Part shown: piece after piece, positions 8,858-40,792 of the stretch | Numbering within the stretch: position 1 is the first letter of the stretch | Layout: every line of letters begins with the position of its first letter | Source of the DNA: an uncultured Leptospirales bacterium | Lineage (GTDB): Bacteria; Spirochaetota; UBA4802; UBA5550 | Length of the DNA: 48,512 nucleotides | NCBI GenBank assembly: GCA_964514165.1 | Contig: CAZEPS010000004.1 | Location: 1-48,512 of the forward strand | Direction: 5' to 3' | Position numbers and translations under genes: made by a program | The notes under the pieces: model-generated | The model's database searches: none | Told to the model about the DNA's origin: nothing | Seen by the model: the letters and a program-made list of their open reading frames with translations, nothing else

Positions 8858-9420
8858 ACAGGGGCACATCCTTCATAAAAATCTGCGGCATGACCGAAAA
8901 GCGCCAGATAGACTGGGCAGTGGAGCTCGGGTACACGGCCGTGGGATTCGTACTGTATGAAAAGAGCCCCCGGTACGTTGCCGTCGAAGAAGCGAAAGCC
9001 CTGGCCCGGCATGCCGGTGATCGCATAAAGACCGTCGCGGTTTCTCTCCGGTTCAATGAACTGGCTGAGGTAGCCCCGTACACGGATTATATCCAGCTCT
9101 ACGAATTCGCGGAAATGGAAAATCTCATCTATGCCGGAGAATCATTCCAGGACTGTGCAAATGCGGATAACATTAAGTACCTGCTCTATGATGCGAGCAG
9201 GGGGAGCGGTTCCTGCCAGAAATTTCCCGGATGGCTCGAAGAGATCCGCGACCGTCTTATACTCTCGGGGGGCCTGACACCGGATAATGTCCGAGATGTC
9301 ATAAAAAAACACCCCTGCGCCGGCATAGACGTGTCAAGCGGGGTGGAAATAAAAAGGGGCGTAAAAGACCATGCCCTTATGAAACAGTTTATCAACGAGG
9401 TGAAACGTGCAGCAGAGTAA
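8854..9420 (+). CDS. trpF: Phosphoribosylanthranilate isomerase
   Basis: IKICGM, SPRYV, LSGGLTPDNV, IDVSSGVE. Confidence 0.95.
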   Translation: MNRGTSFIKICGMTEKRQIDWAVELGYTAVGFVLYEKSPRYVAVEEAKALARHAGDRIKTVAVSLRFNELAEVAPYTDYIQLYEFAEMENLIYAGESFQDCANADNIKYLLYDASRGSGSCQKFPGWLEEIRDRLILSGGLTPDNVRDVIKKHPCAGIDVSSGVEIKRGVKDHALMKQFINEVKRAAE

Positions 9421-10615
9421 CGGTTTTTACGGGGAATATGGCGGGCAGTTCGTTGCCGAAACCCTGATTCCCGCCCTGGACGAACTTGAAGAAGCCTTTC
9501 GGCAATTCACCACTGATCAGGCCATGAAAGATCAGCTCAGGTCATATCTTGAAGAATACGCGGGACGGCCGACCCCGGTCTACTACGCCAAAAACCTGTC
9601 AGAAAAATACGGCATCCGCCTTTTTCTGAAGCGGGAGGACCTTCTCCATACCGGTGCCCACAAAATTAACAACACCATCGGCCAGGCCCTCCTGGCGGGG
9701 TACATGAACAAGAAGCGGGTCATCGCCGAGACCGGCGCCGGGCAGCACGGGGTCGCCACCGCCACCACCGCGGCCCTCTTCAACCTGGAGTGCACGGTCT
9801 ACATGGGTGAGCTCGACATGGAGAGGCAGATGCCGAACGTAAAGAAGATGCAATACCTGGGGGCAGAGGTCGTTCCGGTCGCCTGGGGCCAGAGGACACT
9901 CAAGGACGCGGTGAACGCCTCCATGAAGGACTGGCTGGCGAACATCGAACACACCCATTACCTCCTTGGATCGGTCATGGGGCCCCACCCCTTTCCAGAA
10001 ATCGTTTCAACCTTTCAGTCAGTCATCGGAAGGGAAGCTCGGGATTATTTCTTATCACGGGGATTTCAACCAGACCAAATCATTGCCTGCGTCGGGGGCG
10101 GGAGCAACGCAATCGGCATGTTCGGCCCTTTCCTGAACGATGAGAGCATCCAACTTATCGGCGTGGAAGCGGGTGGGAGATCCGACAACAGTGGGGACCA
10201 CGCGGCAACCCTCACCCGTGGAAAAAAGGGAATCTTCCAGGGGAACCTGACCTACCTTTTGCAGAATGACAACTACCAGGTCGAAGACGTGCACTCCGTT
10301 TCAGCCGGCCTGGATTACGCCGGGGTCGGTCCCCAGCACGCGTACCTGAGGGACAGCGGCAGGGTCCGGTACGAGACCGTGACCGATACTGAAACCCTTG
10401 CCGCCTTCCGGGAACTGGTGCGGCTCGAAGGGATAATCCCCGCCCTGGAGTCGTCCCACGCCCTGGCCCATGCCCTGAAGACCGCCGGTTCCCTGGCGGG
10501 GAAAAAAATCCTGGTCAACCTCTCCGGCAGGGGTGACAAGGACATGGACATCATAGAACACTACAATTTTGTTTTTCATGAAAGGCGCGATGCACCTCTC
10601 ATGCAGAAACCATAA
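9407..10615 (+). CDS. trpB: Tryptophan synthase beta chain (C-terminal tail supplied by an inserted repeat)
   Basis: KREDLLHTGAHKINN (PLP lysine), AETGAGQHG, SAGLDYAGVGP, NLSGRGDKD. Confidence 0.97.
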   Translation: MQQSNGFYGEYGGQFVAETLIPALDELEEAFRQFTTDQAMKDQLRSYLEEYAGRPTPVYYAKNLSEKYGIRLFLKREDLLHTGAHKINNTIGQALLAGYMNKKRVIAETGAGQHGVATATTAALFNLECTVYMGELDMERQMPNVKKMQYLGAEVVPVAWGQRTLKDAVNASMKDWLANIEHTHYLLGSVMGPHPFPEIVSTFQSVIGREARDYFLSRGFQPDQIIACVGGGSNAIGMFGPFLNDESIQLIGVEAGGRSDNSGDHAATLTRGKKGIFQGNLTYLLQNDNYQVEDVHSVSAGLDYAGVGPQHAYLRDSGRVRYETVTDTETLAAFRELVRLEGIIPALESSHALAHALKTAGSLAGKKILVNLSGRGDKDMDIIEHYNFVFHERRDAPLMQKP

Positions 10616-10644
10616 AAATGCATACTCATGCATTTTTATGTTAG
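10568..10644. mobile_element. 73-bp double-hairpin dispersed element, copy 1 (inside trpB 3' end)
   Basis: 71/77 nt identical to 30098-30174; bounded by TTTG and TTAG; contains two stem-loops. Confidence 0.8.
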
Positions 10645-10666
10645 AAGAACTCGAAGGAATACTGTT

Positions 10667-11380
10667 ATGAAAGGAATCTATATCGTGGGCGGGTACCCGT
10701 CCAGGAAAAAATTCATCGACCGGGCCGGGCTTATCCAGGACTCCGGTTTCGATTTTCTCGAGATCGGAATCCCCTTTAACGATTCGGTGGCCGACGGCCC
10801 GGTTATAACGGACACCATGAACAGGGTGCTCGTGAGCGGGGTAACCACCGGCGATATCCTGGATGATATCGCGTCACTCGGTGAACTGCCGATAAAAAAA
10901 TTCATCATGACCTACGTGAATATCCCCTTCTCATACGGGTACGACGATTTCGTTATGAGGATGAAAAATCACATAGACGGATTAATCATCGCCGATCTTC
11001 CGAACAGGATGGTCCCGGCACTGGCCGGTGAAACCTCCCGAATCCCTGTTGTACCCTTCGCCACCCTGGAGACCCGGGACAGGGACATGGATGTGATAAA
11101 AAAATCCGGGGCAGAATTCGTCTACTTCGTCGGCCTCCGGGGCACGACCGGATCCAACGCGAATCTCACGTCCCCCGAAATCATCAGCGGAATAAAAAAG
11201 GTCAGGGAGCAAACCGGTAAAAAGGTCATCATCGGCTTCGGCATCAAGACCCCCCGGGACGCCGAAACAGCCACTGAGATTGCTGACGGTTACGTCATCG
11301 GTACCGAGGCGGTGCGGCGACAGGACGACCGGAAAGAATTCACCCGGTTCCTGACTGAAATACAGGGAAATTACAACTGA
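10667..11380 (+). CDS. trpA: Tryptophan synthase alpha chain
   Basis: LEIGIPFNDSVADGPVI (catalytic Glu/Asp), GTTG, GFGI. Start at ATG 10667 after GAAGGA. Confidence 0.93.
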   Translation: MKGIYIVGGYPSRKKFIDRAGLIQDSGFDFLEIGIPFNDSVADGPVITDTMNRVLVSGVTTGDILDDIASLGELPIKKFIMTYVNIPFSYGYDDFVMRMKNHIDGLIIADLPNRMVPALAGETSRIPVVPFATLETRDRDMDVIKKSGAEFVYFVGLRGTTGSNANLTSPEIISGIKKVREQTGKKVIIGFGIKTPRDAETATEIADGYVIGTEAVRRQDDRKEFTRFLTEIQGNYN

Positions 11381-12782: not shown

Positions 12783-12891
12783 AGGGAACATCTATTAATG
12801 AAACAAGAGGTTCCCTTTGGGGTACGTATTTTGGTTTCAATTTTATTTAGCCTTGATTAATCAAGGCTAAATAAAATTGTTAGATGTACCC
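12783..12891. repeat. Bipartite inverted-repeat element, locus A, with perfect 42-bp palindrome (12838-12879)
   Basis: GGGAACATCT...AGAGGTTCCC mini-module followed by a GGGTAC...AGATGTACCC module; about 85% identical to 40686-40792. Confidence 0.85.
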
Positions 12892-25269: not shown

Positions 25270-25406
25270 AGGGGACTTCTAAAAACTATGTTTTTGAAGA
25301 ACCCTTGCGTGCATCTCGAACCCATATACTATATAATGGAATCGGGAATAAAACCAGCATTTACAATTATAAGGATAATTGTACATGCTGGTTTTTAGAT
25401 GTGCCC
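25270..25406. repeat. Bipartite inverted-repeat element, locus B (divergent member) with 21-bp-stem hairpin
   Basis: AGGGGACTTCTAAAAAC-TAT-GTTTTTGAAGAACCCT mini-module, then GCGTGCATCT ... hairpin 25350-25395 ... AGATGTGCCC. Confidence 0.6.
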
Positions 25407-30097: not shown

Positions 30098-30174
30098 TTA
30101 GTTTTTCATGAGAGGCGCGATGCACCTCTCATTCAGAAACCATAAAAATGCATACCCATGTATTTTCATGTTAG
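30098..30174. mobile_element. 73-bp double-hairpin dispersed element, copy 2, with perfect TTAG direct repeats
   Basis: TTAG at 30098-30101 and 30171-30174; 71/77 nt identical to 10568-10644. Confidence 0.8.
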
Positions 30175-30186
30175 CTCTTATGACTT

Positions 30187-30885
30187 TCATGCGGGCACAT
30201 ATCCCTCTTCTCTCATGCTCAGGTAGGATGTGTCGGTTATGATGACATGGTCCATAAGGGGGATCCCGATTATCTTTCCGCATTCCGCTATCCTGGCGGT
30301 GGTCTGGATATCCTCCCGTGACGGTGACGCAACCCCCGAAGGGTGATTGTGTGCTATGATTATTCCGGACCCCCCTTCTCTGATCGCGTCGCGGAACACC
30401 TCCCTCGGGTGGACAATCGATTCGGAAATCGTACCGACACTGACGAGGCATTTCTTTAAAAGATGGTTCTTGTTGTTCAATATGAGAACCCTGAACTCTT
30501 CCCTGCACAGGCCGGCCATCTCGCCGAGGAGGAGTTCCCATACGAGCCTGGGGGAGTCTATCCGTGCCGGGTGTTCCCGGGAACTGATAATCCTCCTCCC
30601 CATCTCGAGGGCAGCGTGTATCCTGATCGCTTTTTTTAACCCGATACCCTTGACCATTGATAATTCACGAATACCTGACCGGAACAGGCCGTGCAGACCT
30701 CCAAACTCGCTCAGGACACAGGTCGACAGGCCGAGGACACTGTTGTTCTTGAAACCCGTGTTGAGAACGATGGCGAGGAGTTCAATGTCAGAGAGTTTTT
30801 TAACATCTTCACCACCCAGGCATTTCTGAACCGGTAGAATGCTCCTGCCCGTATCGTTCACGACTGTTGATTGTAATTCTTCCAT
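30187..30885 (-). CDS. radC: RadC family protein (HhH + JAB domain)
   Basis: LSDIELLAIVL, KGIG, VHPREVF, HNHPSG, DHVII. Confidence 0.94.
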   Translation of the reverse strand: MEELQSTVVNDTGRSILPVQKCLGGEDVKKLSDIELLAIVLNTGFKNNSVLGLSTCVLSEFGGLHGLFRSGIRELSMVKGIGLKKAIRIHAALEMGRRIISSREHPARIDSPRLVWELLLGEMAGLCREEFRVLILNNKNHLLKKCLVSVGTISESIVHPREVFRDAIREGGSGIIIAHNHPSGVASPSREDIQTTARIAECGKIIGIPLMDHVIITDTSYLSMREEGYVPA

Positions 30886-40685: not shown

Positions 40686-40792
40686 GGTAACCTCTATTAA
40701 TTATACAAGAGGTCCCCTTTGAGTACGTATTATGGCTTAAATTTGATTCAGCCTTGATTAATCAAGGCTGAATCAAATTGTTAGCTGCACCC
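40686..40792. repeat. Bipartite inverted-repeat element, locus C, with perfect 40-bp palindrome (40740-40779)
   Basis: About 85% identical to 12783-12891; palindrome AATTTGATTCAGCCTTGATTAATCAAGGCTGAATCAAATT. Confidence 0.85.

Follow-up and report, generated by a model that had tools for sequence, protein, structure and literature searches.

Among described mobile elements, IS91 and IS608 offer geometries with which the repeat considered here can be compared. In the account of PMC13181058, IS91 elements produce no target-site duplication, have a target tetramer beside oriIS, and carry a palindrome that adjoins the terIS cleavage tetramer. As set out in PMC3201880 and PMC5934647, IS608 integrates on the 3' side of TTAC and has TCAA as its terminal tetranucleotide; these two sites lie 19 and 10 nt from its hairpins, and guide sequences stand at the hairpin feet. 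The repeat is 73 bp long and occurs twice in the window, by which we mean the whole stretch of 48,512 nucleotides that was analysed. Its features and their neighbours are summarized in Table 1.

Table 1. Coordinates of the 73-bp element and of neighbouring features in the window
Feature	Position	Strand	Remarks	Basis
trpB	9407..10615	+	runs into the element and stops inside it	TIGR00263, residues 6-386; translation
Left tetramer of copy 1	10568..10571	+	TTTG	
73-bp element, copy 1	10572..10644	+	within the last trpB codons	removal of 73 nt restores the frame, with a stop overlapping the trpA start
trpA	10667..11380	+	likely start 10667	TIGR00262; junctions of 11 relatives
Left tetramer of copy 2	30098..30101	+	TTAG; host target site, element directly 3'	no left/right co-variation; paralogous empty sites; host stop codons
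73-bp element, copy 2	30102..30174	+	intergenic, 12 nt beyond the radC stop	copy conservation begins and ends at these boundaries; ORF map
Hairpin 1	30108..30132	+	stem of 8 bp, then a C.A mismatch, 2 further bp and a 3-nt loop; left junction 5-6 nt away	fold
Linker	30133..30140	+	conserved GAAA; AAAC able to pair back to the left-end T-run	alignments; fold
Hairpin 2	30141..30170	+	13-bp stem, 4-nt loop	fold; pairs with two-sided changes
Right tetramer	30171..30174	+	(T/G)TAG, the element's terminal tetranucleotide, at the foot of hairpin 2	first-base composition; empty paralogues
radC-family gene	30187..30885	-	mere neighbour of copy 2	NF000642, TIGR00608

The + strand opens at 30098 with TTAG and five T, continues with hairpin 1, a linker of 8 nt and hairpin 2, and closes at 30174 with TTAG. 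The first-pass annotation of this DNA had reported TTAG repeats spaced 73 bp apart, a second copy differing at 6 of 77 nt, two adjacent stem-loops, and ends in direct orientation with no terminal inverted repeat, and the anatomy bears all of this out. The repeats lie at 30098-30101 and 30171-30174, copy 2 is 92.2% identical to the copy at 10568-10644, none of 200 shuffles folds as stably as the + strand (z -4.3), and neither consensus nor alignment shows a terminal inverted repeat. TTAG on both flanks of the trpB copy was not confirmed, the left tetramer there being TTTG. Two-sided changes were found in 18 cells of hairpin 1 against 7.2 in shuffled data (three genera) and at 5 of the 13 pairs of hairpin 2, both measures being inflated by related rows. 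The two hairpins have a common foot, CATGA, and the predicted junction has a short inverted pair of CATGA on its two sides. A 147-codon ORF on the - strand (30098-30541), which overlaps radC and ends at the element's left TTAG, is probably spurious.

The source assembly (G000) comprises 4.46 Mb in 399 contigs, is 94.9% complete and is broken at repeats. A profile search of its contigs recovered 67 distinct loci, 55 full and 12 partial, and a second round added three right-end fragments (E<0.005), for a total of about 70 element loci; the expectation of many more copies genome-wide is thereby confirmed. The median divergence of copies from the consensus is 5%, and one of the 67 loci lies entirely within a called ORF. 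Copies in G000 are not enriched between convergent genes, and their orientation follows contig GC skew in 26 of 49 cases, which gives no strand bias, the skews being weak. The matching sequencing runs are microbial-mat metagenomes from one study; in run X1 contig depth sums to 578 over the element and to about 6 in other places, which fits many copies and is not a count. Rfam returned merely a chance PreQ1 match (E 0.58). The element is a real, mobile, multi-copy, non-autonomous family that lacks terminal inverted repeats. Hairpin 1 is perfectly symmetrical in copies on G000 contigs C37, C28, C7, C76 and C15 and on contig C75 of the relative G037 (L337), and one symmetrised copy has an inverted loop. 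The pattern is typical of template switching, by which these copies may have arisen.

Whether the flanking tetramers are a duplication was examined in the full copies, 49 of which are ungapped 77-mers; seven of these with symmetrised left arms or shifted ends were left out, and the 42 in register were used. TTAG is the commonest boundary and stands on both sides in 15 of the 42. Left and right tetramers are identical in 16, compared with a shuffled expectation of 14.1 (p=0.23). On the left, the tetramer begins with T in 28, A in 10 and G in 4 copies, and on the right with T in 29, G in 12 and A in 1. Among the 20 copies whose left end is not TTAG, one has an identical right end, and none of the eight changed left TAGs is mirrored on the right. 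The best-kept part of the boundary is AG, with A retained in 40 (left) and 41 (right) and G in 40 and 39 of the 42 copies. Young copies show 8 changes at TAG positions, whereas internal decay predicts 3.5 (p=0.026).

Natural empty sites are available because the element has inserted into another abundant repeat. Among 54 copies put to this comparison, 16 had spanning hits, many of them self hits or weak. Three insertions into a hairpin of the other repeat are decisive: all have ATAG on the left and TTAG, GTAG and TTAG, respectively, on the right, and the corresponding empty paralogues carry ATAG in 73 of 94, 6 of 6 and 83 of 108 hits. Two copies are contrary, C254:4758 with the identical non-TTAG tetramers ATAG/ATAG, and the deleted copy C28:4447 with GTAG/GTAG while its paralogues mostly have ATAG. 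In 7 of the 55 full copies, the stop codon of a same-strand gene falls within the left tetramer. The left tetramer belongs to the host, and in the right one the first base, at least, comes from the element. Because of the empty paralogues, the stop codons and the trpB frame, the element is seen to add 73 nt ending in (T/G)TAG behind a host tetramer. The last two or three letters of the right end may be either encoded by the element or part of a shared core of 2-3 nt (AG or TAG). The earlier expectation of TTAG boundaries on other copies thus stands as regards the commonest boundary, and the apparent 4-bp duplication has to be given up, since the tetramers match no more often than by chance and the empty sites assign the left one to the host. 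Among the joints listed for four runs of one study, which cover assembled contigs, no empty-site or circle joint was seen. No relative close enough to provide intergenic empty sites was found, the best having about 70% DNA identity and 46-51% protein identity. An integron attC reading with a G/TT crossover was rejected, as it predicts a host-derived right tetramer, the opposite of the empty-paralogue result.

The insertion site is specified beyond the tetramer. Measured against a background of 7317 intergenic sites, the 42 in-register G000 copies are enriched in T at -11, -10, -5 and -4 from the junction and in A at -6 and +2. T is found at -10 in 28, at -5 in 26 and at -4 in 28 of the copies, and C at +2 in none. 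The preference lies mostly 5' of the junction, over about 11 nt, and barely 3' of it. The target is therefore longer than four bases, and it resembles the element's own right end. The second position of the tetramer is T in 37 of the 42 G000 copies; in the sister family of G114 and G037 it is A in 12 of 14.

Copy 1 shows what an insertion may do to a gene. It gives TrpB a new tail of 15 residues. When the 73 nt are taken out, the trpB frame ends in a TGA overlapping the trpA ATG, as it does in 10 of 11 relatives, and one relative's TrpB ends in YNLEEL, like the restored frame. The TTTG at the left boundary is probably a mutated TTAG of the Leu-Glu codons of trpB. Through the insertion the translational overlap of trpB and trpA has been lost (window 10572-10666). 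Insertions of this element are thus able to alter gene ends and to uncouple operons.

In BLAST-type searches at the DNA level, neither 40 relatives nor 63 genomes of the family yielded a copy. Only a covariance model, built from 22 copies, reached the relatives; scoring 39 candidates in each of 122 genomes of the order, it had matches in 9, one of them G000. The proposed spread to relatives accordingly fails by BLAST-type search and holds by covariance model. By eye, the anatomy is common to hits in G053, G065, G062, G007, G063 (partial), G037 and G114; the G078 hit and a second hit in G007 are doubtful. About seven other genomes of the order carry diverged sister families. The exact linker pattern occurs in 3 of 401 genomes of the phylum. 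Pattern scans of metagenome contigs, plasmids and phages gave no match, those of viral contigs gave one match in all, which is not a hairpin, and that of genome contigs gave 71 loci, none with the two-hairpin anatomy. A family member lies just upstream of an apparent 23S rRNA gene at the same place in L206 (G062) and L207 (G007), which suggests an old common insertion in the rRNA spacer.

Sister copies are about 70-300 bp long. G114 has 21 to 25 copies by end motif, and the interior of hairpin 2 there spans 30-200 nt, often filled by other palindromic repeats. In all genera seen, hairpin 2 ends at the terminal tetramer. The junctions captured in G114 and G037, 14 left and 16 right, represent about 60% of motif hits. 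On the left, 12 of the 14 read TAAG, with CGTG in front of it in 8, like the right end of that family. The right tetramers are more varied, comprising TTAG (6), CCAG, TTGG, CTGG and TAAG (2 each), and TGAG and TTAC (1 each), so that AG ends 11 of the 16. Four head-to-tail junctions were found on three G114 contigs, each passing through one single tetramer. The tandem units differ inside, and the arrays are therefore read as successive insertions behind an older right end. In G000 the tandem-junction pattern gave a single hit, which is due to chance.

Several other repeats and genes were met alongside. A second repeat, more abundant and modular, occupies 12812-12891, 40713-40792 and approximately 25274-25406 of the window and more than 100 loci genome-wide; it begins with a first hairpin, followed by a core with exchangeable inner hairpins that each end just before (A/T)TAG. 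Several insertions of the 73-bp element lie within this second repeat. A repeat of about 140 bp lies downstream of the IS91-like Y2 gene of contig C64 and is met again at intervals of 1-5 kb, its orientation unchanged, in the manner of gene-cassette arrays (contigs C64, C66, C78, C182, C129 and C44 of G000; L040). Its downstream motif also follows Y2 genes of about 420 aa in many relatives, and we found no obvious description of it in the literature. Genes for small ribbon-helix-helix-like proteins are multi-copy in G000 (C218:841-1299, C201:922-1203 and several contig ends), and this family has a promoter-like motif common to the Y1 and Y2 genes. We take these proteins to be akin to Leptospira DUF1564.

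The element is too short to encode a transposase of its own. G000 has four Y1 matches, all RAYT-like and beside a different repeat. They are multi-copy at contig ends (C361, C2, C34 and C217; L001-L004), and a GGCTCTGACCC repeat precedes each. G000 also has three matches to IS91-like Y2 genes, and such Y2 genes occur in G114 and G037. TnpB has no match in G000, and IS110 (PF02371) has none in G000 or in the carriers G053, G065, G062, G007 and G037. Y1, Y2 and IS110 loci of relatives were scanned with the profile or with model R2, taking 30 loci per family search, a fraction of the matches. None of the 30 Y1 loci scanned, out of about 290 Y1 matches in the family, has element ends. The Y2 loci examined have different ends and none is enclosed by those of the element; model R2 gave no match in 27 loci. 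No element ends surround an IS110 gene among 33 loci scanned, the IS110 loci of G114 and others being without them. Many genomes that lack the element have the Y2 clade as well, and in two carriers, G065 and G007, the clade was not detected. Among 120 ORFs neighbouring element copies, none looks transposase-like by eye. Y1 genes of 110 aa (L123-L133, mostly from genus g8) lie between long perfect palindromes that have GGGTTTAAACCC or GGGATTAATCCC at their centre. No long transposase-bearing copy was found in the assembled contigs of G000, G114, G037 and the g8 genomes, with some of the G114 copies running off contig ends, and the predicted longer elements with the same ends around a transposase or recombinase were found in no carrier. 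Several other multi-copy elements are collapsed where G000 contigs break off, and an autonomous partner may therefore be unassembled or lost.

On the + strand the order is target tetramer, junction, hairpin 1, linker, hairpin 2 and terminal tetramer. A host tetramer on the 5' side, a look-alike tetramer on the 3' side and hairpins on one strand make up the layout of an HUH single-strand transposon. The first-pass annotation considered that the element fits neither known class cleanly, a view we do not share, as this layout is the ordinary one of IS91 and IS200/IS605 in the accounts of PMC13181058 and PMC3201880; its suggestion of an HUH or IS110-like enzyme acting in trans survives in our leading reading and in the main rival to it. 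The leading reading, for which the chances are about even, is that the element is non-autonomous and travels as single-stranded DNA, served in trans by an HUH-type transposase, with a geometry most like that of IS91. We infer all the catalytic steps from sequence. The enzyme would nick behind each of the two tetramers, target and terminal, a single-strand circle would be released or copied out, and its 5' end would be joined to the 3'-OH of the target; the right end, which resembles the target, would itself become a target and so give rise to tandem arrays. The enzyme has perhaps been lost or left unassembled. Against this reading count the absence of element ends from every Y1 and Y2 locus examined, the mismatched distribution of the Y2 clade, and the sister target, whose second position is A whereas IS91 keeps T. 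The possible shared core of 2-3 nt, the two copies with identical non-TTAG tetramers, the lack of strand bias against the weak GC skews and the lack of a circle or empty-site joint among those listed count on the same side. The main rival, somewhat unlikely, is a gene-less IS110/IS1111 derivative, in which a double-strand circle would recombine at a 2-nt AG core and a bridge RNA from elsewhere would pick the target. Such a derivative agrees with AG as the best-kept letters of both boundaries, with ISPpu9, described in PMC12288879 as having an AG core, an inverted repeat at the left end and a gene-less derivative, and with the 11-bp target of IS621, read in PMC11208160 by guides of 9 and 4 bases, which is as lopsided as the preference of the element. 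A changeable guide would permit the target to differ between lineages as it does, the CATGA inverted pair surrounds the predicted junction, and in one case, by eye, a symmetrised left end in G037 abuts an IS110-like fragment. Yet PF02371 has no match in G000 or in five carriers, the IS110 loci of G114 and others lack element ends, three unspecified positions of the G000 target fall inside the would-be guide window, the right end of the sister family is variable where donor and core would have to lie, and the two-sided changes that preserve the stems speak for a folded single strand.

Three other known kinds of repeat and one undescribed system have lower probabilities. It is clearly unlikely that the element is a passenger of an undescribed single-strand integrase or transposase. 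The target of such an enzyme would be a mimic of the element's right end and might be recognised through base pairing to the 5' arm of hairpin 2, a natural long DNA guide; cargo would be tolerated in hairpin 2 and units chained head to tail like cassettes, in the manner seen in G114. A true PATE is quite improbable; it would consist of fused IS200/IS605 ends that a Y1 TnpA mobilises by way of DNA guides at the feet of the hairpins. The foot CATGA common to both hairpins would suit it, and AAAC at the foot of hairpin 2 in G000 would select TTAG, analogous to AAAG and TTAC in IS608, a guide and target with a fourth-base pair. However, the foot of hairpin 1 has no fitting guide, relatives with TTAG, TCAG or TAAG boundaries have AAAT or AAAG at the foot of hairpin 2, the cleavage sites would lie 5 and 0 nt from the stems rather than the 19 and 10 of IS608, and G000 has no TnpB match and RAYT-like Y1 matches only. 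An IS608-type guide was consequently rejected, as AAAC fits only hairpin 2 of G000 and foot and boundary do not co-vary in relatives; the four descriptive PATE features that the element has (PMC3119063, Table 4) are the other side of the case. A REPIN- or BIME-like repeat, disseminated by a RAYT with cleavage at CT (AG on the + strand), is very improbable. RAYT-like genes are present in G000, and both boundaries start on the - strand with CT, the cleavage dinucleotide of TnpAREP according to PMC8266576, but that strand has no GTAG or GGAG foot 5' of a stem, the units are direct and not inverted, none of 120 neighbouring ORFs looks by eye like a transposase, and the suggested RAYT link falls on the different repeat that those genes adjoin. 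Scarcely credible, and largely refuted, is a MITE mobilised by a DDE enzyme that duplicates TTAG or TAG. The copies with TTAG on both sides speak for it, and a 3-nt TAG duplication is conceivable; terminal inverted repeats are absent, a 4-bp duplication fails both the co-variation and the empty-site comparison, and none of the eight changed left TAGs recurs on the right.

As it stands the significance of the family is modest, one more lineage-restricted gene-less mobile repeat. It would grow should the mobiliser come to light: the 73-nt element, which has exact boundaries, a known preference for its target and natural variants with cargo, could then serve directly as a test substrate, and a gene-less miniature of an IS91-type or unknown single-strand enzyme with a target of 8-11 nt would be of interest for site-specific insertion. 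In the literature searched we found no description of a 73-bp two-hairpin family and, by title, none of a gene-less IS91 miniature. The family is real, new and restricted to its lineage; it is of a known general kind, has an unusual target that looks like its right end, and its enzyme was not found.

Compared with known systems, the element has no terminal inverted repeats and no 4-bp target-site duplication, and is thus not a classical MITE. It resembles the REP/REPIN repeats described with RAYTs in PMC8266576 and PMC6006769 in being a short intergenic hairpin repeat of high copy number; unlike them, it has direct orientation and fixed boundaries, and neither a 5' GTAG foot nor an adjacent RAYT. 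With ISPpu9 and MITEPpu9 of the IS110 family, as described in PMC12288879, it shares AG at both ends, an inverted repeat near the left end, a gene-less form and insertion into palindromic repeats, but there is no IS110 gene in G000, and the element is much shorter, with a partly specified target and a variable right end. Like IS608 in PMC3201880 and PMC5934647, it has two similar subterminal hairpins on one strand, inserts 3' of a tetranucleotide and retains the host tetramer on its 5' side; its distances of 5 and 0 nt and the lack of co-varying guides set it apart. It is also like the PATEs of Haloquadratum walsbyi (PMC3119063) and the PATE-like elements of Geobacillus (PMC10055086) as there described: gene-less, free of terminal inverted repeats, with palindromes near the termini, too short for a transposase at 73 bp, present in many copies, inserted into other mobile repeats and making no target duplication (the 4-bp one is rejected, a core of 2-3 nt is possible). 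Unlike PATEs, it shows no link to IS605-type ends, the guide rule and spacing fail, its target is longer and mimics the right end, and it forms tandem arrays in a relative. As it has the four descriptive features while no link to IS605-type ends was found in the loci scanned, we do not file it as a PATE proper. Finally, with IS91, IS801 and IS1294 as portrayed in PMC13181058, it has in common a target tetramer kept 5', a similar tetramer after a palindrome, degeneracy of these tetramers and no target-site duplication. It differs in its length of 73 bp, in having no transposase, in its TTAG/TAAG rather than CTTG/GTTC, and in showing no sequence likeness to the Y2 loci examined. By analogy, the geometry of IS91 would seem to fit the element better than that of IS608, and the family may best be described as one with PATE-like anatomy and IS91-like geometry.
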